Source: Candidatus Omnitrophota bacterium (lineage in GTDB: Bacteria > Omnitrophota > Gorgyraeia > Zapsychrales > Fredricksoniimonadaceae). From it: a stretch of DNA of 64,000 nt. A model generated the notes under the pieces. It was not told the origin of the DNA. It searched no databases and saw nothing but the letters and a program-made list of their open reading frames with translations. Both the position numbers and the translations under genes were made by a program. Location: assembly GCA_903860135.1 (NCBI GenBank), contig CAIOPG010000009.1, forward strand, positions 175,805 to 239,804. Reading direction: 5' to 3'. Shown here piece by piece: positions 25,340 through 62,852 of this stretch (its first letter is position 1; every line of letters starts with the position of its first letter).

Positions 25340-25368
25340 ATTATACAAAAGGAGGCTGTGATTGTCAA
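25340..25368 (-). promoter_or_regulatory. Consensus sigma70-type promoter of recA (TTGACA-N17-TATAAT)
   Basis: Minus strand reads gTTGACAatcacagcctccttttgTATAATcatcc. The -35 box (25363-25368) overlaps the stop of the upstream TMTC-like gene. The -10 box is at 25340-25345. No LexA-box-like palindrome between the -10 and the start. Confidence 0.6.
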
Positions 25369-27080: not shown

Positions 27081-27092
27081 TATAGCGTCACT

Positions 27093-27839
27093 TCAACTCA
27101 AGGAATTGTTTAGGATCGCAAAAGATACAACCGCTATCGCGGCTGTATCCACTTTTAAAACATTCTCACCGAGAGTCACAGGCACCGCACCAGCTAGCAC
27201 GGCTTCGACTGCTTCCTCAGGCGTGAAATCTCCTTCAGGTCCAATAAAAAAAACAAAATCCCCTGCATTTCGGCGCGCCGCCAGCGCCATACCCAAAGAA
27301 ATCCGTTCTCCTTCAAGCCATGGGAAAAAAAGAAATTTTCCGGGAACAGCTGTCATGGCCAGCGTTTGGAAGAAAGAAACCGGTAATGTGATCTCGGGAA
27401 ACCATGGACGCTTGCACTGTTTGGCCGCGTTGAGCGCCACCCTCTGGTAACGGGCAAGTTTATGATCAGCTTTCTCGCCGTGCACGTCGTTCTCGGTCCT
27501 TGCCGTAACCATAGGGATAATACGGTCCACCCCTAGCTCGGTGCACTTTTCAATGATCGTTTCAAATTTGGTTCTTTTGGGGATGGCGCAGGCCAGCGTG
27601 ATGTGCGGCCCATGATGCCTCGGAACAACGACAAGAGATCTGATATCAACCCAGGCCGCTGTGCGTGAAACCTCCCGAAGCACCCCTTGCGCCACGCCCC
27701 CTTGCCCGTTCACGATCTCGACGCTATCGCCTGCCTTCAAGCGCAGGACACGGGTCACATGGGCAAATTCATCAGGGTCATCGAGCAAAATACGCGTATC
27801 ATGGCCGGAAAATGGATGGAAAAATCTTCCCGCAGACAC
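27093..27839 (-). CDS. rsmE: 16S rRNA (uracil1498-N3)-methyltransferase
   Basis: 248 aa. PUA-like N-terminus and SPOUT C-terminus (GPEGDFTPEE). Confidence 0.8.
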   Translation of the reverse strand: MSAGRFFHPFSGHDTRILLDDPDEFAHVTRVLRLKAGDSVEIVNGQGGVAQGVLREVSRTAAWVDIRSLVVVPRHHGPHITLACAIPKRTKFETIIEKCTELGVDRIIPMVTARTENDVHGEKADHKLARYQRVALNAAKQCKRPWFPEITLPVSFFQTLAMTAVPGKFLFFPWLEGERISLGMALAARRNAGDFVFFIGPEGDFTPEEAVEAVLAGAVPVTLGENVLKVDTAAIAVVSFAILNNSLS

Positions 27840-27841
27840 GC

Positions 27842-28474
27842 CTAATAACCCCCGGCATTTTCTCGGAAAGTGATGCTGACTTGAGGATTGTCCGTTGTGC
27901 CAGCTGTAAGTGCCCCGGCACTCACAGCCGCGCCAGCAGACGGTGTTTTTCGTCCAACGACGGTCATCTGAAAATAATATTCTCCGGTAGCCCCATCAGC
28001 CACCAGCACAGGATCAGCAATATTGGCATGTGTAAACATATCTTTGACAACATACCCCTCAAAGGTATCTCCCGTAGTACAAGTACCCACTGCCGTCAAT
28101 TCACAACTATATACCGCTGTCTGATCAAGATCACCCGGCTTACTGAAGCAAGTCCAGTTGTCATCTGTGTAAATCTCGGGTGTGAATGCTCCCGATACCT
28201 GGACATCATGCCGAAAACAAAGTGACGAATTGGTGTTATTCAAGTAAATATTTACGCCTGTATCCGAAGGCGATCCATGAAGGCTCCGCACACTCATCCG
28301 TATCTTGTTCACTAAGTATTGAGCTTGGATGTTAATCAAGGCTTCCGAAGAAACATTACTGCCACTCTTGCGCAGTCCATAATCCACACTAAAAATGGCT
28401 GCCATCATGAAGGTGACAATAATGCTCGCCACAATAAGTTCAGCCATTGTAACGGCAGAAGAAGATACTTTCAT
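27842..28474 (-). CDS. Minor (pseudo)pilin-like protein with non-canonical class III leader
   Basis: Inferred start MKVSSSAVTMAELIVASIIV at 28474, giving a 4-nt overlap with the upstream gene. Glu at +5 and a hydrophobic helix, then a Thr/Gly-rich C-terminus. Confidence 0.5.
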   Translation of the reverse strand: MKVSSSAVTMAELIVASIIVTFMMAAIFSVDYGLRKSGSNVSSEALINIQAQYLVNKIRMSVRSLHGSPSDTGVNIYLNNTNSSLCFRHDVQVSGAFTPEIYTDDNWTCFSKPGDLDQTAVYSCELTAVGTCTTGDTFEGYVVKDMFTHANIADPVLVADGATGEYYFQMTVVGRKTPSAGAAVSAGALTAGTTDNPQVSITFRENAGGY

Positions 28475-28476
28475 AA

Positions 28477-28830
28477 TCACCAATTTACCGTCACAGTAAC
28501 CTGGCGCGTTGTCCCGAAGCCAGCTACAACCGTGTAACTGGCTGATGTCATCGAGGTGCAATTGGGATAGGATGCCACAGTAACAGCATGCGCACCGAGC
28601 GTAAGCACGCCCGTACTCCATGTAGAACCCGCCACCGACTTATTCAAGCTATCCAGTATCTCTTTACCGCATAACCCCGCAACCATCCTCGCTTCCGATC
28701 CACGCCCCGAGACCCGCGTTTGGACAATGGTAGCCAAAACCCCCGCAGATGCCACCACAAAAATAACAGACGCGACAATAACCTCGGTCATAGAAAAACC
28801 TGCCTGATCCGTATAAAATTTCATGGACAA
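28477..28830 (-). CDS. Minor pilin / pseudopilin (prepilin-type N-terminal cleavage/methylation domain)
   Basis: Leader ...DQAG|FSMTEVIVASVIFV with Glu+5. Confidence 0.6.
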   Translation of the reverse strand: MSMKFYTDQAGFSMTEVIVASVIFVVASAGVLATIVQTRVSGRGSEARMVAGLCGKEILDSLNKSVAGSTWSTGVLTLGAHAVTVASYPNCTSMTSASYTVVAGFGTTRQVTVTVNW

Positions 28831-29210
28831 TTAGCCCCCGCGCATGAAGGATTAGTTCCGGCCACAACTGGACTTGCTAATGTGACCGTGACCGTCAGAC
28901 CAGATCCAATACTGCCCACACATGTCCCGCTACCACAGGAATACGACACCCCGTCAGCAATAATATGTGTAGCCAACGCCGTATTGATAGCATTGATATC
29001 AGCAGCTACCAGATTAGTGCCGTTGTTATACAAACGATACTGGGCATTGGCGGCATGAATGATACTCAAATTATCCACAACAGAACGCCCGCGCGTGCGA
29101 TCAATCGTCTTAATAAACTGCGGGATAGCCATACCAACCAATATTCCGGAAATGACAAAAATAACCATTAACTCAATCATGGTAAAAGCTTCATTATAAA
29201 GTTTAGTCAT
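28821..29210 (-). CDS. Type IV pilin, family A paralog 1 (C-terminal Cys loop)
   Basis: Inferred start MTKLYNEA|FTMIELMVIFV. The ATG overlaps the stop of paralog A2 (ATGA). Motifs IIHAANA, AINTAL and a C-terminal C..G.NCP. Confidence 0.7.
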   Translation of the reverse strand: MTKLYNEAFTMIELMVIFVISGILVGMAIPQFIKTIDRTRGRSVVDNLSIIHAANAQYRLYNNGTNLVAADINAINTALATHIIADGVSYSCGSGTCVGSIGSGLTVTVTLASPVVAGTNPSCAGANCP

Positions 29211-29581
29211 GGACAACTTGTTCCTGTACATGTCGCAACGCCCGAACTTGTGTTCGGAGTTGTTACAACAAATCCCGTACCCGTAGCCGTGCATTCCGTA
29301 CCTGAAGAACAAGAATATGTGGCACCATCAGCCTTAATATTTAACCCGAGAGCCGTATTTATGGCAGCCACATCTCCAGCCGTAGTATTAGCTCCAGAAC
29401 GTGAAAGAAAGAGGGCATTAGCCGCATGAATAATCGAAATGTTCGTCATGGCCGAACGCGCCTTTGACCGTAAAATAGTTTTTGAAAACTGCGGAACAGC
29501 AAATGCGGCAATGATTGAAATGATGCTCAAAACAACAATAAGTTCAATCAGCGTAAACCCGCTACGCATAAAATACCTCAT
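29207..29581 (-). CDS. Type IV pilin, family A paralog 2
   Basis: MRYFMRSG|FTLIELIVVL leader. Same IIHAANA/AINTAL motifs and a C-terminal CTGTSCP. Confidence 0.7.
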   Translation of the reverse strand: MRYFMRSGFTLIELIVVLSIISIIAAFAVPQFSKTILRSKARSAMTNISIIHAANALFLSRSGANTTAGDVAAINTALGLNIKADGATYSCSSGTECTATGTGFVVTTPNTSSGVATCTGTSCP

Positions 29582-29979
29582 GGGCAACTTGAACCAGAAC
29601 AAGATGGATTTGAGTCACTTAACGCAGTAGCCAACGTGAGCGTCTCTGTAAACCCTGAACCTGTCGCAAGGCATGTCCCTGAATCAGTACAGGAATAAGT
29701 CACTCCATTCGACGTGATCTTTAACTCCAGAGCCGTATTAATGGCCACTAAATTTCCGGCTGTAGATGCATTAACATTTGAATTATTATTACGTAAACGA
29801 TAATACCCATTAGCCGCGTGGATCAGATTAAGATTGGCGATCCCTGCACGTGCATAGGCACGCTTGGTACTTTTTGAAAGAAGCGTGGTCGCAAAAATTG
29901 CTAAAATACCAACAAGCGCCAACACAATTATCATTTCAATGAGCGTAAAAGCCTGACGCATAGTTGGTCTCATGCGCAC
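29578..29979 (-). CDS. Type IV pilin, family A paralog 3
   Basis: MRMRPTMRQA|FTLIEMIIVL. LIHAANG, AINTAL and a C-terminal CSGSSCP. Confidence 0.7.
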   Translation of the reverse strand: MRMRPTMRQAFTLIEMIIVLALVGILAIFATTLLSKSTKRAYARAGIANLNLIHAANGYYRLRNNNSNVNASTAGNLVAINTALELKITSNGVTYSCTDSGTCLATGSGFTETLTLATALSDSNPSCSGSSCP

Positions 29980-30389
29980 GGCGTATTAGGACAAATTTTC
30001 TTAAGTGTGTCCGGACATGAACCACACGAAAAAGCACCCGCTGCAGACACACTAACAGTATATGAACCTGTCGCTGGCTGAACAGCGGATTTTATCGTCA
30101 ATGAAACAGCACCCGTTGATGTATTGCACACAGGTGCCGCAAAATTCGTCGGCGTAACCGTTACATCCAGATTGGCACAAGCGGCACTGGTATCATAGGT
30201 GCTTTTTTCAAGATTATACCTTATCTGAGCCGCGTTGAGCGTGTTAAGGACATTAATCCCTTCAGTAAAGATCGTTTGATCCTTCGCTCCTACCATACGC
30301 GGTACAGCCAACGACGCCAATACACCAATGATAACAATCACGACGATAATTTCAATTAATGTAAAAGCAGACGATCGTATTATATTCAT
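29970..30389 (-). CDS. Type IV pilin (distinct, 5 Cys)
   Basis: MNIIRSSA|FTLIEIIVVIVIIGVLA. C-terminal CGSCP...CPNTPCA. Confidence 0.7.
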   Translation of the reverse strand: MNIIRSSAFTLIEIIVVIVIIGVLASLAVPRMVGAKDQTIFTEGINVLNTLNAAQIRYNLEKSTYDTSAACANLDVTVTPTNFAAPVCNTSTGAVSLTIKSAVQPATGSYTVSVSAAGAFSCGSCPDTLKKICPNTPCA

Positions 30390-30401
30390 ACCATTCCAAA
30401 A

Positions 30402-30818
30402 CTAATTCTTCAATGTTGAAAAAATCCCACCCTTTATCTTTGTAACAGTTCCCGCAGGGGCATTCAGCCTAAGCGTGATCGTATCAGCAACTCCTGCACC
30501 ACCTTTTAAAGTAGCTGTCGCACCGCAAGCAGATGCATTCGCACATTCAGTAGCGGTAAATGAATACGTAAAATTAGTTGATGCCGTTGGAAATGAATAG
30601 CCCGATATTGCTGTTATATTATTACATGCCGTATAATCTTCACTGTTCTGAATATAACATTCCTGGACTTTGCGCATCAAAACGCCAAGCTGCATATAAG
30701 CCTCTGCCGCTTTGGCAATATTCACCTGAGCGCTAAGACGCGGCAAAGCTACTGCGGCCAAAACACCAATGATGATAACAACAATGATGATCTCGATTAG
30801 TGTAAAGCCTTTTTTCAT
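30402..30818 (-). CDS. Type IV major pilin, family B paralog 1
   Basis: MKKG|FTLIEIIIVVIIIGVLAAVALP. Near-identical to the next two genes. Ends KGGIFSTLKN. Confidence 0.8.
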   Translation of the reverse strand: MKKGFTLIEIIIVVIIIGVLAAVALPRLSAQVNIAKAAEAYMQLGVLMRKVQECYIQNSEDYTACNNITAISGYSFPTASTNFTYSFTATECANASACGATATLKGGAGVADTITLRLNAPAGTVTKIKGGIFSTLKN

Positions 30819-30836
30819 TACTTACCCCATTTCCAA

Positions 30837-31256
30837 TTAATTCTTTAATGTAGAGAAAATACCGCCCTTGGTTTTTGTAACAGTTCCCGCAGGGGCATTC
30901 AGGGTAAGCGTGATCGTATCAGCAACTCCTGCACCACCTTTTAAAGTAGCTGTCGCACCGCAAGCAGATGCATTCGCACATTCAGTAGCGGTAAATGAAT
31001 AGGTAAAATTACTTGATGCCGTTGGAAATGAATAGCCCGATATTGCTGTTACATTATTACATGCCGTATAATCTTCACTGTTCTGAATATAACATTCCTG
31101 GACTTTGCGCATCAAAACACCAAGCTGCATATAAGCCTCTGCCGCTTTGGCAATATTCACCTGAGCGCTAAGACGCGGCAGTGCTACTGCGGCCAAAACA
31201 CCAATGATGATAACAACAATGATGATCTCGATTAGTGTAAAACCCTTTTTTTTCAT
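30837..31256 (-). CDS. Type IV major pilin, family B paralog 2
   Basis: MKKKG|FTLIE... Differs from paralog 1 at only a few residues. Confidence 0.8.
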   Translation of the reverse strand: MKKKGFTLIEIIIVVIIIGVLAAVALPRLSAQVNIAKAAEAYMQLGVLMRKVQECYIQNSEDYTACNNVTAISGYSFPTASSNFTYSFTATECANASACGATATLKGGAGVADTITLTLNAPAGTVTKTKGGIFSTLKN

Positions 31257-31313
31257 ACATTTCCTTTTTTAGTGTTTTATTAGTATGTTCCTGCATTAAT
31301 AATATTTTTGGAA

Positions 31314-31730
31314 TTAATTCTTCAAAGTTGAAAAAATACCACCCTTTGTTTTTGTAACGGTTCCCGCAGGGGCATTCAGCGTAAGCGTGATAACATCCGC
31401 CGCCGCACCACCTTTTAAAGTAGCTGTCGCACCGCAAGCAGATGCATTCGCACATTCAGTAGCGGTAAATGCATATGTAAAATTACTCGATCCAGTTGGA
31501 AAGGAATAACCAGATATCGCTGTTACATTATTGCATGCCGCATAATCTTCACTATTCTGAACATAACATTCTTGGACTTTGCGCATCAAAACACCAAGCT
31601 GCATATAAGCCTCTGCCGCTTTGGCAATATTCACCTGAGCGCTAAGACGCGGCAACGCTACTGCGGCCAAAACACCGATAATGATAACAACAATGATGAT
31701 CTCGATTAGTGTAAAACCTTTTTTTTTCAT
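31314..31730 (-). CDS. Type IV major pilin, family B paralog 3
   Basis: MKKKG|FTLIE... Near-identical again. Preceded by a conserved 57-nt upstream region. Confidence 0.8.
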   Translation of the reverse strand: MKKKGFTLIEIIIVVIIIGVLAAVALPRLSAQVNIAKAAEAYMQLGVLMRKVQECYVQNSEDYAACNNVTAISGYSFPTGSSNFTYAFTATECANASACGATATLKGGAAADVITLTLNAPAGTVTKTKGGIFSTLKN

Positions 31731-31787
31731 ACATTTCCTTTTTTAGTGTTTTATTAATATCTTCCTGAATTAAAAATATTTTTAAAA

Positions 31788-32207
31788 TTAATTCTTCAAA
31801 GTTGAGAAAATACCCCCCTTTGTTTTTGTAATCGAACCAGCTGAAATATCCAGCTTAAGAGTGATAACATCCGCAGCGTTCGCATTGGTTCCACTGAATG
31901 AAGCTTGACCTACACAATTATTAGCATCTGGACACAGAGAAGAATTAAAATTATATGTAAAATTAGGAGTTACTGGAAATGTATAACCTGATAGAGCTGT
32001 CACCTCGTTGCATCCCGCCATGATGTCACCATTTTGAATATAACATTCCTGGACTTTGCGCATCAGAACACCCAGTTGCCTATAGGCCTCAACGGCTTTT
32101 GTAGTATTAACCTGATTCGTAACACGAGGCATAGCTATCGCTGCTAAGACTCCAATAATTATAACAACAATTATTACTTCAATCAATGTAAACCCATTTT
32201 TATACAC
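31788..32207 (-). CDS. Type IV major pilin, family B paralog 4 (diverged; GTG start)
   Basis: The ORF-track M is a GTG. The more likely start is the second GTG, giving leader (M)YKNG|FTLIEVIIVVIIIGVLAA. Same C-terminus KTKGGIFSTLKN. Confidence 0.65.
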   Translation of the reverse strand: MYKNGFTLIEVIIVVIIIGVLAAIAMPRVTNQVNTTKAVEAYRQLGVLMRKVQECYIQNGDIMAGCNEVTALSGYTFPVTPNFTYNFNSSLCPDANNCVGQASFSGTNANAADVITLKLDISAGSITKTKGGIFSTLKN

Positions 32208-32281
32208 GTATATCCTACCCACATGTTATCTGTATACAAATATGACATATTTAAATAAATAAAGCGAATATAAATAATTAA

Positions 32282-33508
32282 TTATCCTCCGGTAGATAAA
32301 GAAAGTATAGGTAGAAACATCGCGATAACAATTAGACCTATTACACCACCCATGATAACAAGCATAACGGGTTCAATAAGAATGCTGAATCGCTTCAAAA
32401 ATTCTTCAACATTAGCTTTATAATATATGGCGACATTATTCAACATCTTGCCAAGCTCACCGGTTTCCTCGCCAACACGGATCATCTGCACCGTCATCGA
32501 AGGGAAAAATCCACTTCTTTCCATTGGATCTGCCAAAAGCTGCCCCTCACGTACGGCTTCACGCACATTTCTTATAACTTCCGCACAAACCACATTATCC
32601 ACCAGTCTCTCCGATATCTCCAAAGAATAAAGAATGGGGACACCGCTTTCCATAAGGGTGGACATTTGAGATGTAAACTTCTCAATTACAATTAATTTTA
32701 TCATACCACCGAAAATAGGAACTTTAAAAAGAAAAGTCTCAAATTGCTTTCTTCCAAGAGGTGTTTTAATGTAATTCATGAAAAGAAAAATGCTTCCGGC
32801 CCCTCCAGCAATAAGTATAAAAAATCTCTCTTTCAATAATTTGAAAATTGACATCATTATGACCGTGATAGTCGGGAGCTTGATATCCATATCAGAAAAA
32901 ATACGTTCAAATGTAGGCCCGACAAAAAGAGCGAAAAACAAAACAGCTCCGATACAAATAAAACAAAGAACCATCGGATAAACAAGGGCTCCTATAATAG
33001 TAGACTTGAACTTGGCTGTATCCTCCATATATTGTGTCAACTTGTTGAGAACTTTCGGTAATGTACCAGATGCTTCACCAACCTCAATAAGACTGACCCA
33101 AAAAGCAGTAAACACCTTGGGATATTTTGAAATAGCGCTACTGAAAGTACGACCCTGTTCAACATCTGTGACTACCGCCTCAATGATGACGGTTAACCCA
33201 CGACTTTCCAGCTGAGAGCTGATGATCTTGAGCGATCGCATTAACAAAACACCTGCTCCCATCATCGCAGAAAGTTGACGCGCAAAAGAAACAACATCAT
33301 TTAATGAAATATTATTGTGCGAAAACACCCGCTTCTTTGCAACTGACGTCACAGGCTGTTGATTCTCAACAAACTGTTTTACAGCGGTTACAAAAAGCCC
33401 TTTTTGCTGTGCAAACTTAACAGCCTGCTGATCATTAATGGACTCTACAACCTCATTAAATACATGCCCTGAATTATCTTTAGCAGTAACAAGAAATTTG
33501 GCCATCAA
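32282..33508 (-). CDS. pilC: Type IV pilus / T2SS platform protein (PilC/GspF family, two T2SSF domains)
   Basis: 408 aa. Duplicated GspF-like halves, each followed by TM helices. Confidence 0.85.
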   Translation of the reverse strand: MMAKFLVTAKDNSGHVFNEVVESINDQQAVKFAQQKGLFVTAVKQFVENQQPVTSVAKKRVFSHNNISLNDVVSFARQLSAMMGAGVLLMRSLKIISSQLESRGLTVIIEAVVTDVEQGRTFSSAISKYPKVFTAFWVSLIEVGEASGTLPKVLNKLTQYMEDTAKFKSTIIGALVYPMVLCFICIGAVLFFALFVGPTFERIFSDMDIKLPTITVIMMSIFKLLKERFFILIAGGAGSIFLFMNYIKTPLGRKQFETFLFKVPIFGGMIKLIVIEKFTSQMSTLMESGVPILYSLEISERLVDNVVCAEVIRNVREAVREGQLLADPMERSGFFPSMTVQMIRVGEETGELGKMLNNVAIYYKANVEEFLKRFSILIEPVMLVIMGGVIGLIVIAMFLPILSLSTGG

Positions 33509-33523
33509 TTTCCCCAGATCAAT

Positions 33524-35233
33524 TTATATAACAATAGATAAAATTTCCTCAAGGCTCGTGACACCTTCTTCAACCTTCTTCATCCCAACTTCAAAAAGTG
33601 TCGCCATTCCAGCTTTAGATGCTGCGTCCTTCAATTCGTCATAGGAAACATTGTTACCGATCATACGCCGTATAACATCATTAATGGCAAGAACCTCTGA
33701 TACGACCATGCGTCCCCTGTATCCGGTGTGCCCGCATTTATCGCACCCTTTAGCGCGATAAATCAAATCGGTAGACAACTTGATAGACCCCAGATCTTCC
33801 GGCCTCGGTTCATAGGGCTCTTTGCAATCGGCGCATAACTTACGCGCTAAGCGCTGGCTCACAATCATCGTTAATGACGGTGTTAATAAATATGAGGGGA
33901 CACCTATATCCATCAAGCGGCTTATCGCTGACGGTGCGTCATTGGTATGCAGTGTTGAAAGGACAAAGTGACCTGTTAATGCCGCACGCACACATATCTC
34001 TGCTGTCTCAAGATCACGTATTTCACCAACCATAATGATATCCGGATCCTGTCGAAGAAACGATCGTAACGCCTGTGCAAATCCAAAGCCAATATCAGGA
34101 CGCACATGAACCTGGTTAATTCCATCAATGCGGAACTCAACAGGATCTTCTGCTGTCATAATATTCTTGGTGCGATCAAAAACTTCAGAAAGAGAAGAAT
34201 AAAGGGTCGTCGACTTACCACTACCCGTAGGTCCTGTTATAAGAAAAAGACCATACGGAACTTTAAGTGCTTTACGGATGAGTTCTAACTGGGACGCATT
34301 AAATCCAAGCGTAGCCAAATCAAGTTTTACTGCATTCTTATCCAGGATACGCATAACCACTTTCTCTCCCCAAACGGTAGGAACGGTGGACACACGCAGA
34401 TCAACAACACGGTTTTGATCAAACTTTACAGAAATACGCCCATCCTGCGGCAATCGCCTCTCGGCAATGTCAAGCCTAGAAATGATCTTAATGCGCGATA
34501 CGATCGAAGCATGAAGATGTTTTGCCGGCGGAGGGATTTGATAAAGATCACCGTCGATACGATAACGAAGTTCGATCTTGTCCTTAAAAGGTTCGATATG
34601 AATATCACTTGCCCGGTCATCAATAGCCTGCCTGATAATAAGATCCACAAGCTTGATGATCGGCGCTTCTTCGGCTGTTGCGATCAACCTGTCAAGACTT
34701 AACTCCGACTCAGATTTATCATCACCGGATGTTGAGAAATTACTCGAGTCATTCTGCGCTCTTTCAACCGCCTTTCCCCAAGCACCACCCTCATCGGCCA
34801 GATAAAACCGCTCCAATGATTTTAGAATATCGGTACGTGTCGCAATGACAAAGTTTATTTCACAACCAGTCATCTTTTTCAAATTATCGATCATAATAAG
34901 ATCAAATGGATTAAAGATCGCGCATGTCAGTGAATTACCATTCCGATTAAGTAACAATACAAGATTATCTACAGCATACTGATACGAAATAAGCTTTTCA
35001 AGGCCCTGCCCTTTTTGAGGATTCAATAGGCCTGAAGCTTCGGAGGCATATGGAATAAGAAGCTGTGTCCCAAGAGCCACAGCCAAGTCGCTTTCATTAA
35101 TAAATCCCATTTTGACCAAAATTTCTCCGACATGACTCTTGTCGGTCTTTTGGGCATCTATAGCAGACTGGAACTGGGCTTCGGTAATTAAGCCCTTTTT
35201 AATAAGTATTTCACCAAGCTTTAACCGTGCCAT
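33524..35233 (-). CDS. pilB: Type IV pilus assembly / T2SS ATPase (PilB/MshE/GspE family) with N-terminal MshEN c-di-GMP-binding domain
   Basis: 569 aa. N-terminal tandem 24-aa MshEN motifs (KLGEILIKKGLITEAQFQSAIDAQ, a 5-aa spacer, HVGEILVKMGFINESDLAVALGTQ). Walker A GPTGSGKST. C-terminal tetracysteine CADC...CDKC. Confidence 0.9.
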   Translation of the reverse strand: MARLKLGEILIKKGLITEAQFQSAIDAQKTDKSHVGEILVKMGFINESDLAVALGTQLLIPYASEASGLLNPQKGQGLEKLISYQYAVDNLVLLLNRNGNSLTCAIFNPFDLIMIDNLKKMTGCEINFVIATRTDILKSLERFYLADEGGAWGKAVERAQNDSSNFSTSGDDKSESELSLDRLIATAEEAPIIKLVDLIIRQAIDDRASDIHIEPFKDKIELRYRIDGDLYQIPPPAKHLHASIVSRIKIISRLDIAERRLPQDGRISVKFDQNRVVDLRVSTVPTVWGEKVVMRILDKNAVKLDLATLGFNASQLELIRKALKVPYGLFLITGPTGSGKSTTLYSSLSEVFDRTKNIMTAEDPVEFRIDGINQVHVRPDIGFGFAQALRSFLRQDPDIIMVGEIRDLETAEICVRAALTGHFVLSTLHTNDAPSAISRLMDIGVPSYLLTPSLTMIVSQRLARKLCADCKEPYEPRPEDLGSIKLSTDLIYRAKGCDKCGHTGYRGRMVVSEVLAINDVIRRMIGNNVSYDELKDAASKAGMATLFEVGMKKVEEGVTSLEEILSIVI

Positions 35234-35242
35234 AATTTAATC

Positions 35243-36745: not shown

Positions 36746-36749
36746 ACTA

Positions 36750-37220
36750 TCAATCTTTCAATAATAACTTGTAAAGAAATTCGTTGTAATCTATTTCCAC
36801 ACGGCCTTTGCGGATAGCCAAAATCCTTACCCCCTCTGATCTATCCCCCAAACCCAATATATTTCCATTTAAAATAACCATTGGATTCCTTGTTTTATAA
36901 AATATTCCTGTCACTTTCAGCACAGGCAACGAGGCTATTGATAATTTCCTTACAGGTTGCGCTGAGGGTATCGCAACAAAGTGCTTTATTTCAGGAATAA
37001 CAGCAACTATCGGTCTATCTACTACTGGCTTAACTAAATTATCAGCTTCCTTGCGAAAATCTTTACTAACAAGATCTGGTCTGGCTTTAAACGGATGGAA
37101 AGGCTCCCCAAGAGACTCTATCATCATTTCAAACGGAAGCTTATTAGTCTCATTGGCGTAAGAAAGAGTTGAATTAAAATGAAATAATTGAAAACTATAG
37201 ATAAAAAGAATATTATACAT
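36750..37220 (-). CDS. PilP/GspC-like inner-membrane lipoprotein-like component (weak)
   Basis: Short TM/signal region then a beta-rich C-terminus (LKVTGIFYKTRNPMVILNG..LGDRSEGVRILAI). Sits between PilO-like and the secretin. The start is inferred after the pilO stop. Confidence 0.35.
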   Translation of the reverse strand: MYNILFIYSFQLFHFNSTLSYANETNKLPFEMMIESLGEPFHPFKARPDLVSKDFRKEADNLVKPVVDRPIVAVIPEIKHFVAIPSAQPVRKLSIASLPVLKVTGIFYKTRNPMVILNGNILGLGDRSEGVRILAIRKGRVEIDYNEFLYKLLLKD

Positions 37221-37236
37221 TAAAAAAAGATGATGC

Positions 37237-37866
37237 CTACTTCTTTTTAAAATTTTTATGTTCATTATCTTCCACCAGTTGAAGCAACGAAATGGTAACA
37301 TCCAGCGTCATCGCATCCGTCTGGACTCCTGAATTAACCGGATTGTACTTAATCAACAGGCTATCCAATTTGATCATGTACCCGGAAGATTCCATATCAT
37401 GAACAAATAATAGCATATCCTTGACATTAAGGGAAGAAGCACTAAAACTCATACAAATAGAACGAAAAAAACCATCATTGCTAGTCTGCAATGGATTAAA
37501 AGCATCAATTGTAATTCGTCGCCGCGTGGCACGCCCTGTAACATAAGATATAAAATCAGCCTTGACCAATCCCAAAGGCATCTTGCACATATAATCAGTC
37601 AGATATTTGTTGCTTTGCTCAAGATCCTGGATAGGCTGTCTTTTTGATTGCAAAATCTTTTTTCTCGACGCAAGAGACTGATATTGATTAAAATTTTTAG
37701 TTGTAAGAAAAACTATTACACAAAATCCCAATAAAACAATCAAAGAATTAGTCGCTAAAACTAAATTCTGATTTACATAATGGTTACAATCCTTAATAAA
37801 TTTTGAAGGATTATTTAGATATATTTCGAAATTCTTTAAATCATCAAGATTCATTTCGCCTCGCAC
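37237..37866 (-). CDS. PilO-like inner-membrane pilus alignment protein (weak)
   Basis: 209 aa with a single TM near residue 45 and a coiled-coil-like region. Position is between pilMN and the pilP-like gene. Confidence 0.4.
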   Translation of the reverse strand: MRGEMNLDDLKNFEIYLNNPSKFIKDCNHYVNQNLVLATNSLIVLLGFCVIVFLTTKNFNQYQSLASRKKILQSKRQPIQDLEQSNKYLTDYMCKMPLGLVKADFISYVTGRATRRRITIDAFNPLQTSNDGFFRSICMSFSASSLNVKDMLLFVHDMESSGYMIKLDSLLIKYNPVNSGVQTDAMTLDVTISLLQLVEDNEHKNFKKK

Positions 37867-39455
37867 GTAATCGAAAACGCTGTGACTTTTCTATTATCAT
37901 ATTCTCGAACCTGTAAAGAAACAATCTTAATTTGTGTGAAATTAGTGGCGAACAAATTATCGCTATTTAAAGCATTAAAGAAATGATTAACCCTTTCAAA
38001 TTCTATATTGTTGTCCTTCAAAGACACATACCCCGAAAAGGTCATTGCCGTCTTGGTCTGAAGTGAATAATAATCAACCTCTTTGTTCCCGGGCTCAGGG
38101 ACCTTGCGCGCCGAAACAGGCTCATCTTTAAAAGACAAACTAACAGACTCAAGCCAAAATCCGGATGGCAGTCGTTTGACCAGCCGCACCAACATCTTTG
38201 TCGCCCGTGCATCGAAAGGCAATGATTTCAATGAAAATAACTTCTTGACATTCTTCATTTTCTTCTGAACGGCGTCTGACTCATCTATATCAACGTATTC
38301 CCCGATCTCCTGCTCAAGATTAACAACTTCCTGTCTAAACTTAGACAGAAGCTGATCAGCAAAGAATGCAACAGAAAAGATCAGTGTAAAAACACCGGCC
38401 CCCACCGCCAAGGGCAAAACCAATGCTTGCCTCCTCTGGTCAATTTCAACTTGCTTGAGAGAAACCTGCTGTTTGGAACCTTCAAACAAATTAAAGTCAA
38501 TAACAGTAACCACTTTACTCATCATGGCCACGCCGTAGGCATACACAGCCGCCATTGTATTGCAATCATTGTGATCTACAAGTCTAAAAATATCAACAAT
38601 CTCAACATTGACCCCGAGTTCCTCTCCCATCTTGTCCCACAAAGCATTATTTCCGCCAATGGATATGGCCACCATTCTCTGGACTTCCTCCCCGCCATAC
38701 TGACGCAAGAAGAATTCGGAAGAAATACGGATCTCATTGAAAACTTTGGAACGTAGCTCATCATCGATCTGAAGAGTGCCAACACCCTGATGCACACCTC
38801 CCTGAAGATTAAACTCACGGATAAACTTGACATACCCTTTTTCACAAATAAGGAGTTCTCCGATATAACCATCGACATAAACAATCGCCGTTAATTCATC
38901 GGGATCAACGATCTTTCTAAAAACCAATGCACGGTAAAGACTAGCCGACGCCGGTTCACTGTAAACAACATTTATACCTGCTTGCATTAAAGCATCCGCA
39001 TGTTTTTCAAAAACATCTTTACGGATAGCAACAAATATAATGCCAATCTGCCGCGGATTACTTCCTAGAATATTCGAAGGAAAATATGTGTACGACAACT
39101 CATCAATTGGGAAAGGAATATACTTCTTGGCTTCGAAGATAACAACATCCTGTATCTCGCTTGACTTCATCCACGGAATACTGAACCAGCGAATAATAAT
39201 ATCTTTTGAAGGGATAGAAAGAAATGTTTCCTGCGTTGAAAAACCTTTATTTCGAACAGATTTTTGCAGTGCATCTAGAATCTGCATATCATGCGGTAAA
39301 GACTTCTTGTCAGCAGTGGAAGCCACGTCTTCCGGCGATACAAAAGGAACAAATGTCCCTATGGCGGGTGCGTTGCTCTCCAGTTGAACCAGCGTGAATC
39401 CGCTTGATCCCGAGTAAACCCCTAATCGCTTCTCACTGGCCATACCCAACCTCAT
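37851..39455 (-). CDS. pilM: PilM-PilN fusion (actin-like ATPase domain + C-terminal TM/PilN-like periplasmic region)
   Basis: 534 aa. A PilM-like actin fold in the first ~350 aa, then the TM helix ALVLPLAVGAGVFTLIFSVAFF and a ~150-aa C-terminal region. The likely start is the SD-preceded ATG at 39443. Confidence 0.65.
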   Translation of the reverse strand: MRLGMASEKRLGVYSGSSGFTLVQLESNAPAIGTFVPFVSPEDVASTADKKSLPHDMQILDALQKSVRNKGFSTQETFLSIPSKDIIIRWFSIPWMKSSEIQDVVIFEAKKYIPFPIDELSYTYFPSNILGSNPRQIGIIFVAIRKDVFEKHADALMQAGINVVYSEPASASLYRALVFRKIVDPDELTAIVYVDGYIGELLICEKGYVKFIREFNLQGGVHQGVGTLQIDDELRSKVFNEIRISSEFFLRQYGGEEVQRMVAISIGGNNALWDKMGEELGVNVEIVDIFRLVDHNDCNTMAAVYAYGVAMMSKVVTVIDFNLFEGSKQQVSLKQVEIDQRRQALVLPLAVGAGVFTLIFSVAFFADQLLSKFRQEVVNLEQEIGEYVDIDESDAVQKKMKNVKKLFSLKSLPFDARATKMLVRLVKRLPSGFWLESVSLSFKDEPVSARKVPEPGNKEVDYYSLQTKTAMTFSGYVSLKDNNIEFERVNHFFNALNSDNLFATNFTQIKIVSLQVREYDNRKVTAFSITCEAK

Positions 39456-39511
39456 TGCTTTTATAAAAATGAATACTTTTAGCTAATAATCAATCGCAAG
39501 AAACGTATGCA

Positions 39512-39841
39512 TCAGTAACTAACATCCATCGTGAATGCCCTTGTTGCCCCTGGTCCTCCGCCGGCTACTTGGGTATAATGAACCGAATATGTTGTTCCGT
39601 CAACATATTCAGAGAAATCCGTAAGTGTTGTCGAACCACCGGCGTAAATCTCGCGTGCCCACCATAAAGCTTTTTTGGCAATAAGTTCCGCCTGAAGATG
39701 CTTTCTTTCACGTTCGGAAATAAGTGCCTGTGAATAATTTCGCGATAACACACCTAAAACCAAGATTGACATAAGCATAACAGCCGCAATAACTGTCAGT
39801 AAAATTACCCCCCGCTCACTACCGTATTCTCTTCTAATCAT
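39512..39841 (-). CDS. PilX/GspK-like minor pilin
   Basis: Inferred start MIRREYGSERG|VILLTVIAAVMLM. The ORF-track start is a 37-aa upstream extension overlapping the next gene. Confidence 0.45.
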   Translation of the reverse strand: MIRREYGSERGVILLTVIAAVMLMSILVLGVLSRNYSQALISERERKHLQAELIAKKALWWAREIYAGGSTTLTDFSEYVDGTTYSVHYTQVAGGGPGATRAFTMDVSY

Positions 39842-40073
39842 GAATTCCCTCCTCAAGATAACTCTGACAAAGTGGACAACGCACAACCTCAGTCTTTCCG
39901 TTACTGATAATGATATGGCTGCAATAGGGGCATTGCCTAACAATACCCGCACTTGATGCCTCCCTGTTTACGCCATCATCCACAACGGCATATTTAAACC
40001 ACATAAACCCAAAAAAAATAATCATGACAGAAAGACAAAGACTTACGCCCAAGGCAATATCTATCGTGATCAT
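39834..40073 (-). CDS. Small membrane protein with C-terminal CPxC...CPLC zinc-ribbon
   Basis: 79 aa. N-terminal TM (LGVSLCLSVMIIFFGFMWF), then CPYCSHII-(12 aa)-CPLCQSY. Overlaps both neighbours by 4-8 nt. Confidence 0.5.
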   Translation of the reverse strand: MITIDIALGVSLCLSVMIIFFGFMWFKYAVVDDGVNREASSAGIVRQCPYCSHIIISNGKTEVVRCPLCQSYLEEGIHD

Positions 40074-40498
40074 GGCAACCTCAAACGAAGATCTAATGGT
40101 GCTACAGGAACATCCTCAACAACTGCCACAGAAGGTTCATCGCGATCCTCAGGAACAACCCTTACACCGGAAAAATGAAATATATCCTTATCCTCCGGTG
40201 GCATACTTCTATAAAAAGATTCAGGTTTCTCTGCCTGCAAGGAGCGCAACCACCCTCCTGATAAGTATAATGGTACGGTACTATCATTAATCTTTTCTTC
40301 AACTTGCAGGACTGAAACTTCATGACGCGAAGGAATAACTTCCTGCGGGCTTAAAATATTGCCCAAGAAGACAACATCGAGTTTGTACGTGTTGTTAACA
40401 GCTCCTTTAAATGAAAAGATCACAAAAGTTAAAGCGATGGCGTGCATGATGCCCGCCGTTAATACCCCTATCATCGGAGAATGCCACTTCACTAGCAT
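40070..40498 (-). CDS. TonB/TolA-like N-terminal anchor protein lacking a recognisable C-terminal domain
   Basis: 142 aa. TM (IGVLTAGIMHAIALTFVIF) with a conserved His. Acidic/Pro-rich C-terminus (PEDRDEPSVAVVEDVPVAPLDL). Start coincides with the exbD stop. Confidence 0.35.
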   Translation of the reverse strand: MLVKWHSPMIGVLTAGIMHAIALTFVIFSFKGAVNNTYKLDVVFLGNILSPQEVIPSRHEVSVLQVEEKINDSTVPLYLSGGWLRSLQAEKPESFYRSMPPEDKDIFHFSGVRVVPEDRDEPSVAVVEDVPVAPLDLRLRLP

Positions 40499-40896
40499 TA
40501 CTTCTCACGATCCGTAGCAATATTAATATGCTCGATCCCCATGCTGCGGGCAAGATTCAGGATGTCCACAACACGACCAACCGATGCCCGGTGATCCGCC
40601 TTGATCAAGATGGCTCTGGCATTGCCGCCAGGAAATGCTAAAAACTCTTTAAGTTCACCCAGCGTGATCAAATGATTATTCACATACACAACATTCTCGC
40701 CCGTCACAATGATCGTCAAACTTGACGGAGAGGCTATGTCGCTTGTCACTCCTTTGGGCAAGGCGATCTTTAAGAACGATGATTTTGAAATAAATAAAAT
40801 AAACGCTATAAAACCCAATAGAATAAATAATACATTCAAAAAAGGAAAGAAATTAAATTTTGGCACACATAATTTCAAATGCCTACGGAAATCCAT
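40498..40896 (-). CDS. exbD: ExbD/TolR-family biopolymer transport protein
   Basis: 132 aa. N-terminal TM and periplasmic ExbD fold (LTIIVTGENVVYVNNHLITLGEL, ILIKADHRASVGRVVDIL). Confidence 0.75.
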   Translation of the reverse strand: MDFRRHLKLCVPKFNFFPFLNVLFILLGFIAFILFISKSSFLKIALPKGVTSDIASPSSLTIIVTGENVVYVNNHLITLGELKEFLAFPGGNARAILIKADHRASVGRVVDILNLARSMGIEHINIATDREK

Positions 40897-40899
40897 GCC

Positions 40900-41568
40900 C
40901 TAAGCCCCTCCGGCTAAAGGAACATTAATAATCTGCGTCATTTCACGCACAAGCGTCGAAGCAACCTGCTCCATCTGCAGAACAGTACCCTCGATCACCT
41001 TAAGAAAATACCGGTGCGCGATCATGGCAAAGATCCCGACAAGGGAAGCCGCCGCTGTTGTAATAAGCGCTTGCCCAAGACCAGCCGTAACATCCATCAA
41101 ACTGGCAGGATTTACAGCTACCGCACGAAGCTGTATTGTATGCAATAACCCACACAAACCAACCACCGTCCCCAGAAGGCCGATCAAAGGCACTAATTGA
41201 GCCATAAATACTAAAAGATCCAACCCTTTTTCCATCGCGCGTACCTCATACCTGGCCGCATCTTCCATCGCCACTTGTATCTCTGGTGCCGATTGACCAA
41301 AACTCAACAATCCTGCTTTTAAAATTCGTGCCATCGAAGAATCTGCGGCATCACACGCTGAAAGGGCACCCATGGTATTATTGTTTTGAATAAAACCGAT
41401 CACTTGAATAGAAAGGACAGCAATACCTTCGCGCACTTCTCCTAGAAACAAGAATCTTTCAATGACCAAAGCCGTAACACTGACGGAACATATCAAAACA
41501 GGAACCATGACAGGACCACCTGTCAATAATAATCGCCATGCGCCAATCCCGGTTACAGCATCGATCAT
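40900..41568 (-). CDS. exbB: MotA/TolQ/ExbB-family proton channel
   Basis: 222 aa with 3 TM. Conserved C-terminal LVGIFAMIAHRYF. Confidence 0.8.
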   Translation of the reverse strand: MIDAVTGIGAWRLLLTGGPVMVPVLICSVSVTALVIERFLFLGEVREGIAVLSIQVIGFIQNNNTMGALSACDAADSSMARILKAGLLSFGQSAPEIQVAMEDAARYEVRAMEKGLDLLVFMAQLVPLIGLLGTVVGLCGLLHTIQLRAVAVNPASLMDVTAGLGQALITTAAASLVGIFAMIAHRYFLKVIEGTVLQMEQVASTLVREMTQIINVPLAGGA

Positions 41569-41586
41569 TTAGGCATCCTTCGGCTA

Positions 41587-44070
41587 TTATTTCTTCCCGC
41601 TGCGTTCTTGGATCAACTCAATCCGTTCATTGGCAAACTTACTCTCGTCAACCTTCAAGTCAACAACCTTCCTGTACGCAGTAATCGCCTTTTCTAATTC
41701 ATTATTGTTTTCAAAAATTCTAGCGATACGCAAATATGCTTTTATAACCCATGGGATTTCTTTCGAATAAATATACGGTATCTTGAAATAAGCCTCTAGT
41801 GCCTTGTCAGATTCATTCAACACCTCGTAAACATCTCCCACAGAAAATTGAATCCCGGCACTGGTTACCTGGCTTTCACCTTTATCCGCTTCGATAGCCT
41901 CCGCGTATACAAACAACTCTTCGTTAAATTTCTTCTCCCGACGGTATATCTGCGCTATCTTCATTAAAGCATCACGTTTATACTGCGGACTTGTCGCTAT
42001 AATACCATGGTATGTTTCAACCGCCTTGTCAGTATCCAGTTCCTTAACAAATATACCAGCAATAGCAATCTTTGCCTTGGGGTAAAGTAATGGATCAATT
42101 TGGGGATCAACCTGCCTAAAATACGCGAGAGCTTTTTCAAAGTTCTCCAAAGACAAATACGCACGACCCAATTCAAAACAAAGAAGACCTTGCTTGACCG
42201 TCTCGGGCAAATCAAACAAGCCCTTCGTATAGAGTTCTACGGCCACCTGATAGAGACCTTCTGTCATATTGTACTGCCCCAGCCACAGAACACACTCGAT
42301 CTCCGCTTCGGTGTGAGGGTAACGATGCACGATATCTTTAAAACGTGCAAGTGCTTCCTTCGTGTCACCCATAGCATCATATGTCTTGGCAAGCCCTACA
42401 TACGCATTCTGGAGTATCTGCTGTTCATCAGGATAAAGCCTAAGCACATCATTAAAGATAACTATCGCCCTGTCAAACTGCTTCAAATTAAAATGCGTCA
42501 TCGCCAACACATAACGGGCTTCCGCCACAAACTGAACCGGAACAACAGGGTCAGAAATAAAAGAGGTCAGTATTTCAACAGCCGTCGCCCATTCCTTTCT
42601 ACGGAAATACGCCAAACCAAGATAATAACGGGATTCAGAAATATACTTACTGCCGGGATAATTAGCTTTTAATGCCTGAAGTGCCAAAACAGCAGCATCA
42701 ATCTTGCCGGATTTAAGAAGCGCAATCCCTAAATAATATTGGACATGATCTTCATAAGGCGTGTCCGGCATTTCATGAAGGATCTTGTCATAGACATCGA
42801 TCGCCTTGTCCATAACGCCAGCCTCCTGATAGGCATCCGCAATCTGGCTATACGCACTCACTTTTATTATCTTGTTATCCGACTTGTCAGCTACCAGCTG
42901 AAACATAGCGACAGCCTTGTCAATATCACCGCTCTTGGAATAAGTCCAAGCTAAACCGAACCTAGCTTTCTCGATCATTTTATCCCGTCCTGCCGCACCG
43001 CTAGAAATAGCAATGATCATCTCATAATCTTTGATAGCGGCCACATAATCATTAACAAGATACCAGGCATTGGCACGCCCCAAATAAGTATCGGCTATTT
43101 TAAGACTCGCCGGAAACCGCGCGATAACTTCCGAATAAATTGAGGCCGCTTCAACATATTTCTCCTGGGCTATAAAAAGACTCGCCTTGGCCAAAAGAAC
43201 ATCTTCTTCGGATACCTTTGCCGCTTTAACCGCAAATTGCGCTTCATCGAACGTCTTTAACGCCTCCACATATTTCTTAAGTTTGATCTGACACCAGCCC
43301 GTCCCGATCAGCGATGCGGCCATCGAAGATGGCGCCGTTGTCAATGATCTGGCTTTCTGATAAGCATCCGAGGCCTTGTCATATTGTTCCAGATTATACA
43401 AAGCCTCGGCCACATTGAATTGGGCTTCATAAAGACGGGTCGAACCGGGATGCCCTGAGATATAATTATTGAAAGCCACAATAGCCGCTTCATACTGAAC
43501 AGCATTGTAGTCACACTCTCCCAGCTTGAACGCGGCATCATCGGACAAGTTGTTAGCAGGAAACTTATCGATCAAGGCCTGGAATATCTTTTTGGCCGAC
43601 ACATAATCTTCCTTCTGAAAATAAGACCAGGCGAGCGAATAATATGCCTGGGGCGCATACAGGGATGCCGGAAAAGCATCAATAACTTGACGGTATTTCT
43701 CTTGGGCTTTGGGAATATCGCCACCCTTGAAATATGTTTCTCCCAACCAGAAAAGAGAGGCATCCTTGTATTCAGGCAACGCTACCAGATCCTTAAAAAC
43801 ATTAAAGGCCTGCACATACTGTTGCTTAAAGAAATAACTTTGCCCTTCGAGCAATCTCGCTTCAACAACTTTTGTGGTTTGCGGGAATTCAGTTAGAAGT
43901 TGATTGACGTAACGCAGAGAAACATCATAAAAACCATCTTCAAATGCGCGCTGGGCTACAATGAAAAGATCTTTCTCATTAGAATCAACAGCAAAAGATG
44001 GTGTCGCAACGATGAGCAACGAAATGCCCATGATGTACAGGATACATTGTAGATTTTTTCTTATTTTCAT
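41587..44070 (-). CDS. Large secreted/periplasmic TPR-repeat protein (about 18 TPRs)
   Basis: 827 aa. Signal peptide MKIRKNLQCILYIMGISLLIVATPSFA. TPR consensus (W..LG..Y...G.Y..A) repeats throughout. Confidence 0.8.
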   Translation of the reverse strand: MKIRKNLQCILYIMGISLLIVATPSFAVDSNEKDLFIVAQRAFEDGFYDVSLRYVNQLLTEFPQTTKVVEARLLEGQSYFFKQQYVQAFNVFKDLVALPEYKDASLFWLGETYFKGGDIPKAQEKYRQVIDAFPASLYAPQAYYSLAWSYFQKEDYVSAKKIFQALIDKFPANNLSDDAAFKLGECDYNAVQYEAAIVAFNNYISGHPGSTRLYEAQFNVAEALYNLEQYDKASDAYQKARSLTTAPSSMAASLIGTGWCQIKLKKYVEALKTFDEAQFAVKAAKVSEEDVLLAKASLFIAQEKYVEAASIYSEVIARFPASLKIADTYLGRANAWYLVNDYVAAIKDYEMIIAISSGAAGRDKMIEKARFGLAWTYSKSGDIDKAVAMFQLVADKSDNKIIKVSAYSQIADAYQEAGVMDKAIDVYDKILHEMPDTPYEDHVQYYLGIALLKSGKIDAAVLALQALKANYPGSKYISESRYYLGLAYFRRKEWATAVEILTSFISDPVVPVQFVAEARYVLAMTHFNLKQFDRAIVIFNDVLRLYPDEQQILQNAYVGLAKTYDAMGDTKEALARFKDIVHRYPHTEAEIECVLWLGQYNMTEGLYQVAVELYTKGLFDLPETVKQGLLCFELGRAYLSLENFEKALAYFRQVDPQIDPLLYPKAKIAIAGIFVKELDTDKAVETYHGIIATSPQYKRDALMKIAQIYRREKKFNEELFVYAEAIEADKGESQVTSAGIQFSVGDVYEVLNESDKALEAYFKIPYIYSKEIPWVIKAYLRIARIFENNNELEKAITAYRKVVDLKVDESKFANERIELIQERSGKK

Positions 44071-62826: not shown

Positions 62827-62852
62827 TGATACGACTCCTCTGATCTTAAATA

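Follow-up and report, generated by a model that had tools for sequence, protein, structure and literature searches.

The gene block at positions 27842–44070 of a 64,000-nucleotide stretch of DNA from a Candidatus Omnitrophota bacterium (assembly GCA_903860135.1, contig CAIOPG010000009.1, positions 175,805–239,804; the whole stretch is called the window below) is the main type IV filament locus of this bacterium, similar to both the type IVa pilus (T4aP) and type II secretion systems (T2SS). Embedded in it are four genes encoding an ExbB/TolQ-family protein, an ExbD/TolR-family protein, a short TonB-family protein and a zinc-ribbon membrane protein. In Omnitrophota, this Ton-like module is conserved and lies within the operon of the type IV filament locus. 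Judging by the sequence comparisons, we lean, if only slightly, towards the view that it is a dedicated, co-transcribed accessory of this locus that in the window has ceased to be a canonical proton-driven motor.

All genes of the block lie on the minus strand and point in one direction. From high to low coordinates they follow uvrA in the order TPR (tetratricopeptide repeat) protein, ExbB, ExbD, a protein of 142 amino acids (aa), zinc ribbon, PilX-like, PilM-N, PilO-like, PilP-like, secretin, ATPase, PilC and ten pilin-like genes, beyond which lie rsmE, another TPR gene and recA. The families were assigned with Pfam, NCBIfam and structure comparisons. The ExbB/TolQ-family protein (222 aa, 40900–41568) matches PF01618 (MotA_ExbB) with 79.0 bits, the gathering score being 22.9, and the ExbD/TolR-family protein (132 aa, 40498–40896) matches PF02472 with 57.6 bits against 25.4. 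The short TonB-family protein (40070–40498) has a transmembrane (TM) helix with a T-x3-H motif and a low-complexity periplasmic tail, and the zinc-ribbon protein (79 aa, 39834–40073) has an N-terminal TM helix and a C-terminal CxxC...CPxCxSY motif. The module is preceded by the first gene of the block, encoding a periplasmic TPR protein with an N-terminal signal peptide (827 aa, 41587–44070), to which many TPR families match. It is followed by a GspK/PilX-like minor pilin lacking Glu5 (109 aa, 39512–39841), recognised by the NCBIfam models of the GspK N-terminus (E-value 8.5e-7) and of ComGG (1.9e-4).

The junctions are tight. As read from the sequence, ExbB and ExbD are separated by 3 nucleotides (nt), and the following genes overlap: ExbD and the 142-aa gene by 1 nt (TAATG), the 142-aa and zinc-ribbon genes by 4 nt (ATGA), and the zinc-ribbon and PilX-like genes by 8 nt. 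A scan of the 27–47 kb region, restricted to sigma-70 and intrinsic-terminator patterns and hence weak as evidence, gave counts not above those in shuffled sequence and nothing convincing at 39.8–40.1 kb. No PilT-type ATPase, that is, no second T2SSE protein, was found among the open reading frames (ORFs) scanned or named in the window, and the same is true of prepilin peptidase (PilD), TolB, Pal and a second ExbB. A preliminary description of the window, made from the sequence alone, had claimed a co-directional block of motor and pilus genes, overlaps of 1–8 nt at the last three junctions, and a locus devoid of a PilT-type ATPase and a prepilin peptidase; all three observations are borne out.

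The 142-aa protein has no Pfam match, and in particular TonB_C (PF03544) is absent. Its TM helix carries the motif T15-x3-H19; in two alignments of relatives, with 30 and 69 sequences, this His never varies, and S-x3-H is the consensus of the family. This motif in a TM helix is a signature of TonB/TolA anchors. The best PDB profile match of the family is the TM segment of TolA with the same motif, although a weak one (E-value 0.12). In one major clade, the orthologues at the same position are longer, 205–235 aa, and for two of them (in loci L078 and L089) the Pfam TonB_C match exceeds the gathering score. The model of a 209-aa representative, built from a 69-sequence alignment, features a TM helix, a disordered linker of about 90 residues and a confident C-terminal helix–strand–strand–helix–strand domain. 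The TM His motif together with the TonB C-terminal domain of the longer orthologues thus identifies the family as TonB-type, and the protein of the window is a short form ending before the C-terminal domain, so that its initial label, a TonB-like stub, was apt. The Cys pairs of the zinc-ribbon protein are conserved across 55 orthologues, and since the ribbon relies on four Cys residues, it is presumably cytoplasmic.

The window proteins are also encoded on metagenome contigs of 258–273 kb, and their named relatives all come from Candidatus Omnitrophota. Some relatives are labelled as 'uncultured Planctomycetales', 'Patescibacteria group' or 'Candidatus Elulimicrobium'; their synteny is the same, and the deviating labels are probably naming differences. 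A scan anchored at PilM-N, with one genome per species, produced 80 loci, in which the identity of PilM-N to the window's copy goes down to 21%; these loci were annotated with hidden Markov models (HMMs) built from the window proteins. The order uvrA–TPR–ExbB–ExbD–TonB-like–zinc ribbon–PilX-like–PilMN–PilO–PilP–secretin–ATPase–PilC–pilins–rsmE recurs throughout. The ExbB and ExbD genes are situated directly upstream of the pilus genes in 56 of the 80 loci, where they are accompanied by the zinc-ribbon gene in 55 cases and by the TonB-like gene in 53. The reverse test was a metagenome scan anchored at the ExbD alignment, which returned 531 relatives. Among the best 80 of these 531, which were examined, PilM-N lies downstream in all 22 loci with at least 3 kb of downstream sequence, and the shorter contigs end before the PilM-N position. 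The preliminary description had named rare adjacency of the ExbBD and TonB-like genes to pilus genes in relatives as the mark of chance juxtaposition; by both scans, the adjacency is frequent. As the linkage recurs in dozens of divergent genomes, it is far beyond chance, and the association of motor and pilus genes is real and ancient.

Nine loci lack the module while having ample upstream sequence (L057, L059, L060, L065, L066, L068, L079, L084, L085). There the TPR gene is followed by a small winged-helix-like gene and then by the PilX-like gene; all four module genes are absent, and all pilus genes are kept. In L064 and L067 the module is absent too, and no TPR gene was detected upstream. 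Since the four genes are missing together in the loci without ExbBD, they behave largely as one unit, whereas the TPR protein, which persists there without the module, is to be grouped with the pilus. Of 53 related loci, 27 have a 4-nt overlap between the TonB-like and zinc-ribbon genes and 14 a 1-nt overlap between ExbD and the TonB-like gene, these figures being indicative only, as the start-codon heuristic is biased to short distances.

The residues required for ion-driven motors are another matter. For ExbD, the alignment combined the orthologues with the E. coli proteins ExbD and TolR; for ExbB, it included E. coli ExbB/TolQ and 56 orthologues. The window's ExbD has Asn at the position of E. 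coli D25 (PFLNVL aligned with PFIDVM). In the genome loci this column contains Asp 36 times, Asn 19 times, not counting the window, and Thr once, and in the metagenome set it contains Asp 69 times, Asn eight times, and Thr and Gly once each. In ExbB, the window has Gln in place of the TM3 Glu (E. coli E176), a residue retained by 35 of the 56 related genome loci, while the TM2 Thr (E. coli T148) is kept, in GLLGTV. The ExbB Glu is also missing in 16 of the 20 Asn-bearing sequences; Glu in ExbB is paired with Asp in ExbD in 33 aligned sequences, two of which are the E. coli references. No acidic residue is left in the TM helix of the window's ExbD or in the TM3 core of its ExbB. The D25N substitution in ExbD and equivalent substitutions at TolR D23 and MotB D32 abolish function.

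The rates of evolution differ as well. The mean pairwise identities of ExbB, ExbD and the pilus ATPase are 0.70, 0.62 and 0.70, respectively, in loci with the long TonB-like protein and both acidic residues kept, and 0.66, 0.65 and 0.69 in loci with the short form and both residues kept. In the window's clade, which carries Asn, they are 0.40, 0.46 and 0.78. Hence ExbB and ExbD evolve much faster in this clade, even though the pilus ATPase is more conserved there. In a neighbour-joining tree from PilM-N, the ATPase and the secretin, the clade with long TonB-like proteins uniformly has Asp and Glu. Most of the loci without the module nest within it, and since the surrounding clade bears the module, the latter has been lost secondarily at least twice. 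The Asn clade of the window is monophyletic, with one member having Asp, and at least five further scattered changes from Asp to Asn or Thr are seen, all of them in the short-TonB clade.

The preliminary description saw in the tight joins a proton-motive motor coupled to the pilus assembly genes. The part of this claim that concerns gene linkage is supported, the genes being embedded in the locus with tight junctions. The motor part does not fare so well: with Asn in ExbD, Gln in ExbB, the TonB C-terminal domain gone and both stator proteins evolving fast, a working proton-motive motor is unlikely in the window.

We infer the module's physical and functional association with the pilus machine, its partner, and its activity or inactivity as follows. 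Ancestrally, and in most of the phylum still, the module has the ExbD Asp and ExbB Glu needed by a 5:2 ExbB–ExbD ion-driven stator, to which one major clade adds a full TonB-type C-terminal domain. In the lineages with both residues it is probably a stator of the ExbB5–ExbD2 type, driven by ions, with the TonB-type protein reaching a periplasmic or outer-membrane partner. It would relay energy from the inner membrane, or if not energy then a mechanical connection, to some periplasmic or outer-membrane component of the pilus machine; candidate partners are the N0/STN domain of the secretin, the PilP-like protein and the TPR protein, and through the presumably cytoplasmic zinc ribbon the module may be connected to PilM or the ATPase. 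The simplest reading of the losses is that truncation of the TonB arm weakened the constraint on the proton relay, which could then have been lost repeatedly with the genes retained intact. In the lineage of the window, the module would most likely be a non-rotating structural or scaffolding part, or else work by a non-canonical mechanism.

Several observations weigh against this scheme. In 55 of the 80 loci uvrA is the direct upstream neighbour, even at PilM-N identities as low as 21%, and rsmE was detected downstream in 25 of 80; as these genes are often syntenic too, a conserved neighbourhood alone is no proof of a shared function. The clade statements depend on the neighbour-joining tree, which is rough. 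The secretin comparison yielded no coupling signature on the partner side: the STN–Secretin_N–Secretin domains are identical in five loci without the module and five with it. The STN/N0 domain, considered as a marker of coupling, was rejected for the same reason, being present with and without the module. Finally, Asn and Gln at the motor positions might be tolerated in some coupling mechanism.

A more far-reaching version of the accessory role, which we put forward as a tentative possibility, is that the filament machine of Omnitrophota incorporates, as one of its own components, an ExbB–ExbD 5:2 stator equipped with a TonB-type arm and a zinc-ribbon adaptor. In the many lineages with Asp and Glu, and in one clade with the TonB C-terminal domain as well, it would drive some step with the proton-motive force, and the window's lineage would have a 'motor-dead' scaffold derivative. 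This step could be PilT-independent retraction, secretin opening or the import of prey-derived material through the secretin; in any case, it would be one that other bacteria power with ATP or not at all.

An alternative is that the four genes and the TPR protein form a housekeeping Tol/Ton envelope system (TolQ–TolR–TolA-like with a TPR protein similar to CpoB/YbgF), held next to the pilus genes by frozen synteny with no functional link to the pilus. We consider this unlikely. The frequent flanking of the block by uvrA and rsmE is what such frozen synteny would look like. Further, the best NCBIfam match of ExbB is TolQ (62 bits, below the cut-off), the top PDB profile match of the TonB-like family is to TolA, and the TPR protein exceeds the YbgF cut-off (TIGR02795, 216 bits against 90). 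The latter score, however, comes from six repeat matches of an 827-aa protein to a model of 119 positions. Moreover, TolB and Pal were found neither in the window nor in the flanks scanned, the module sits between the TPR gene, itself pilus-associated, and the PilX-like gene, and its reading frames overlap into the latter, a minor pilin gene. Loss of the module on at least two occasions with the pilus genes undisturbed, and repeated loss of the key acidic residues, would be unexpected for a core envelope system.

Slightly less probable still, in our opinion, is an active ion-driven stator in this genome, with Asn and Gln accommodated by a non-canonical ion pathway and with an outer-membrane or filament step being powered, such as PilT-independent retraction, gating of the secretin or uptake through it. 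The module genes show no disruption, are tightly coupled and persist throughout the Asn clade at 40–46% identity, the Thr of ExbB TM2 and the His of the TonB-like TM helix are kept, and PilT is absent both from the window and from the relatives' flanks scanned, all of which would suit an active stator. On the other hand, the acidic residues are gone from the ExbD TM helix and the ExbB TM3 core, equivalent D-to-N changes inactivate ExbD, TolR and MotB, the TonB-like protein of the window has no C-terminal domain to reach an outer-membrane partner, and ExbB and ExbD evolve faster in precisely this clade. That the module of this clade is a decaying remnant without function is very improbable: loss of the catalytic residues and the TonB C-terminal domain and the higher rates of ExbB and ExbD might be so explained, but none of the four ORFs is disrupted in any member of a clade so deep that its mean PilM-N identity is only about 40%, the junctions continue to overlap, and sequence conservation in ExbD (46%) exceeds that in PilM-N (40%) and PilO (28%).

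The pilus machine itself is intermediate. Pfam domains match the parts of the type IVa pilus, namely the PilB-type ATPase, PilC, PilM, PilN/O, the secretin and the prepilin-type pilins, while the NCBIfam scores lie between those of the T4aP and T2SS models, with no equivalog cut-off being reached. The PilM-N fusion (530 aa, 37851–39443), recognised by Pfam PilM_2, was modelled by AlphaFold2 with a confidence (pLDDT) of 81; in the model, an actin-like domain is followed by a long TM/coiled-coil helix and, at the C-terminus, by a periplasmic ferredoxin-like domain. The Foldseek matches of this model include PilM of P. aeruginosa (E-value 7e-19) and the cytoplasmic domains of GspL/EpsL, and the predicted architecture of the fusion is GspL-like. 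The PilO-like protein (205 aa, 37237–37854) was identified by comparing a profile of 27 orthologues with M. xanthus PilO (3jc8, E-value 1.4e-5). The assignment of the PilP/GspB-like protein (about 171 aa, 36750–37265) is weak, based on its position and on matches to T2SSB/GspB in Pfam (E-value 0.0096) and among PDB profiles (0.19), both of them weak; an attempt at a firmer identity failed, yielding nothing beyond these. Its orthologues share an (L)RDPF motif and a conserved C-terminal domain.

The secretin (500 aa, 35243–36745) has the Pfam domains STN/N0, Secretin_N and Secretin. Its scores with the NCBIfam models of GspD (196, cut-off 351) and PilQ (195, cut-off 284) are about equal and both below the cut-offs, as is the score with the MshL model (125, cut-off 250). 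The assembly ATPase of the PilB/GspE type (569 aa, 33524–35233; T2SSE, 455 bits; MshEN match) scores 622 bits with the PilB model TIGR02538 (cut-off 676) and 587 with GspE (cut-off 630). At the N-terminus it carries an MshE-type motif binding cyclic di-GMP (NF053729, 57 bits with a cut-off of 38), and hence pilus assembly may be under cyclic di-GMP control. The platform protein PilC/GspF (408 aa, 32282–33508), matched twice by T2SSF, scores 317 bits with GspF (cut-off 424) and 291 bits with PilC, also below the cut-off. No GspC was recognised in the locus. There is one T2SSE ATPase in each of the 80 related loci, considered with flanks of about 10 kb, and no PilT was found in the flanks scanned.

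The pilin genes occupy the downstream part of the block. The N_methyl prepilin motif is present in nine ORFs, and the tenth gene is pilin-like. The first pilin (144 aa, 31788–32222), with a GspG-like N-terminus, is followed by three near-identical tandem pilins (31314–31730, 30837–31256, 30402–30818), the copies of the repeat being 94–98% identical over 300 nt with spacings of 435 and 474 nt; all four have the N_methyl motif. A fourth, more diverged pilin copy is seen within 30402–32222, the repeat period being 435–477 nt. The GspG model scores 43–47 on the pilins, compared to the cut-off of 89. The pilin arrangement in L001, from a near-identical population, differs from that in L002 and the window, which suggests copy-number or cassette variation of the major pilin. 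Then come five pilin-like ORFs with the same motif (29970–30389, 29578–29979, 29207–29602, 28821–29312, 28477–28830); the likely true starts of the third and fourth of these are 29581 and 29210. The last gene (27842–28474) encodes a large minor-pilin-like protein of about 210 aa, its start being an internal Met directly after the upstream stop codon. The N-terminus of the product resembles a class III signal (MKVSSSA|VTMAELIVA), and the HMM of the product cross-matches pilins in the relatives. A separate family for the 259-aa ORF was considered and rejected, as the iterative HMM drifted onto pilins; the ORF is taken as pilin-like.

Upstream of the block lies uvrA (44128–46920). The flanking of the locus by uvrA and rsmE is an unusually deep synteny of unrelated genes in Omnitrophota. 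Downstream, between rsmE and recA, the second TPR protein (571 aa, 25365–27080) has matches in 19 related loci. The GC content is 0.35–0.46 over 26000–44000, against about 0.52 in the flanks. We considered a recent horizontal island and rejected it, as the synteny from uvrA to rsmE recurs and low GC is general in the relatives: in 49 loci, the mean GC of the PilO, PilM-N and TPR genes is 0.40–0.43 compared to 0.48 in uvrA. The dip is a property of these fast-evolving genes and not a trace of recent transfer. Many relatives (L057, L060, L066, L079, L084, L085, L113, L148, L161) contain two extra small genes absent in the window, one encoding a winged-helix-like protein of about 70 aa (MIIEIGI(T/V)AGEIWHFLDQ...) before the PilX-like gene, and the other an excisionase/MerR-like helix-turn-helix protein of about 66 aa (MSRLIDIDELADYLKLKKQTIYNWL...) directly before PilM-N; these may be dedicated regulators. 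The remaining genes of the window are housekeeping ones (arginine, lysine and histidine biosynthesis, GatCAB, SecDF, Mfd, AlaRS), and Rfam and tRNA scans of the window found nothing. At the window edge there is a gene of a PIN-domain protein, likely the toxin of a toxin–antitoxin pair (63450–63833), adjoined by two small plus-strand ORFs (62627–63272), besides which the window's non-overlapping set has hardly any ORF on this strand.

The power for type IV filament machines is generally ascribed to cytoplasmic ATPases, and to our knowledge a Ton-type contribution is hinted at only by PocAB-TonB3, whose requirement in Pseudomonas is poorly understood. Across Omnitrophota loci, the TonB arm may be complete or truncated, the relay residues neutralised, or the module missing altogether, and this variety offers a natural comparative system in which one can ask what a Ton-like motor does for a pilus. 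The phylum consists of ultra-small bacteria, putatively predatory or parasitic, in which attachment to the host is assumed to be mediated by pili, and the module may bear on host attachment or feeding. Moreover, two conserved 'hypothetical proteins' of Omnitrophota can now be named as the TonB-family and the zinc-ribbon membrane protein of a pilus-linked Ton-like module. Omnitrophota loci of this kind were classed as T4aP with no mention of TonB or ExbB (Seymour et al. 2023, PMC10066038). The Omnitrophota literature searched contains no report of ExbB, ExbD or TolQ near pili, and the arrangement is undescribed there.

With the T4aP and T2SS the locus shares the secretin, PilB/GspE, PilC/GspF, PilM, PilO, the prepilin-type pilins and the GspK/PilX-like minor pilin. 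It differs in the fusion of PilM and PilN, the lack of PilT and PilD in the locus, the MshE-type motif of the ATPase and the embedded Ton-like module. As the latter belongs to no standard layout, the preliminary description was right in calling the architecture non-standard. The similarity to the Ton and Tol–Pal systems consists in the MotA_ExbB and ExbD domains, the S/T-x3-H helix and the TonB C-terminal domain of distant orthologues; as in Tol–Pal, where CpoB takes this place, a TPR protein adjoins the module. Unlike in these systems, no TonB-dependent receptor, TolB or Pal is found nearby, and the NCBIfam equivalog scores are far below the cut-offs.

TPR-rich proteins are also part of the Agl-Glt machine of M. 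xanthus, which resembles the Omnitrophota module in parts only, these being the motor, the TonB-like protein, the zinc ribbon and the TPR protein. In Agl-Glt, the TolQR-type motor AglRQS acts with GltG and GltJ, single-pass inner-membrane proteins with a disordered periplasmic region and TonB-C, and the cytosolic zinc-ribbon domain of GltJ is a regulatory link (PMC11135422). GltJ combines an N-terminal ribbon, the TM helix and TonB-C in one protein, whereas in the window the ribbon is C-terminal and belongs to a separate 79-aa protein. The partner machines differ as well, a focal-adhesion complex in the case of Agl-Glt and a type IV filament system here, and Glt outer-membrane components are absent from the genes identified, although no search aimed at them was made.

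The closest precedent is PocA-PocB-TonB3 of P. aeruginosa, which similarly is an ExbB-ExbD-TonB set linked to type IV pili, in our case by genomic association alone. The poc and tonB3 genes of Pseudomonas are not known to lie inside the pilMNOPQ or pilBCD operons. These paralogues of ExbB, ExbD and TonB ('polar organelle coordinator') serve type IVa pili and the flagellum, not nutrient import; they are needed for both the production and the placement of the pili, and the pocB and tonB3 mutants have no pili (PMC5285504). An interaction of TonB3 with the N0 domain of PilQ was suggested on the grounds that N0 is similar to the domain with which TonB-dependent receptors signal (PMC5285504). PocAB-TonB3 has no described zinc-ribbon partner, and its components are presented simply as ExbBD-TonB homologues (PMC5285504), whereas the Omnitrophota module is embedded in the operon. 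The operon-embedded, phylum-wide form with a zinc-ribbon partner appears to be unreported, while the idea that a type IV pilus can be served by a Ton-type module is already known from PocAB-TonB3. Unlike the latter as described, the module of the window lacks both motor residues, Asp in ExbD and Glu in ExbB, as well as the C-terminal domain of TonB.

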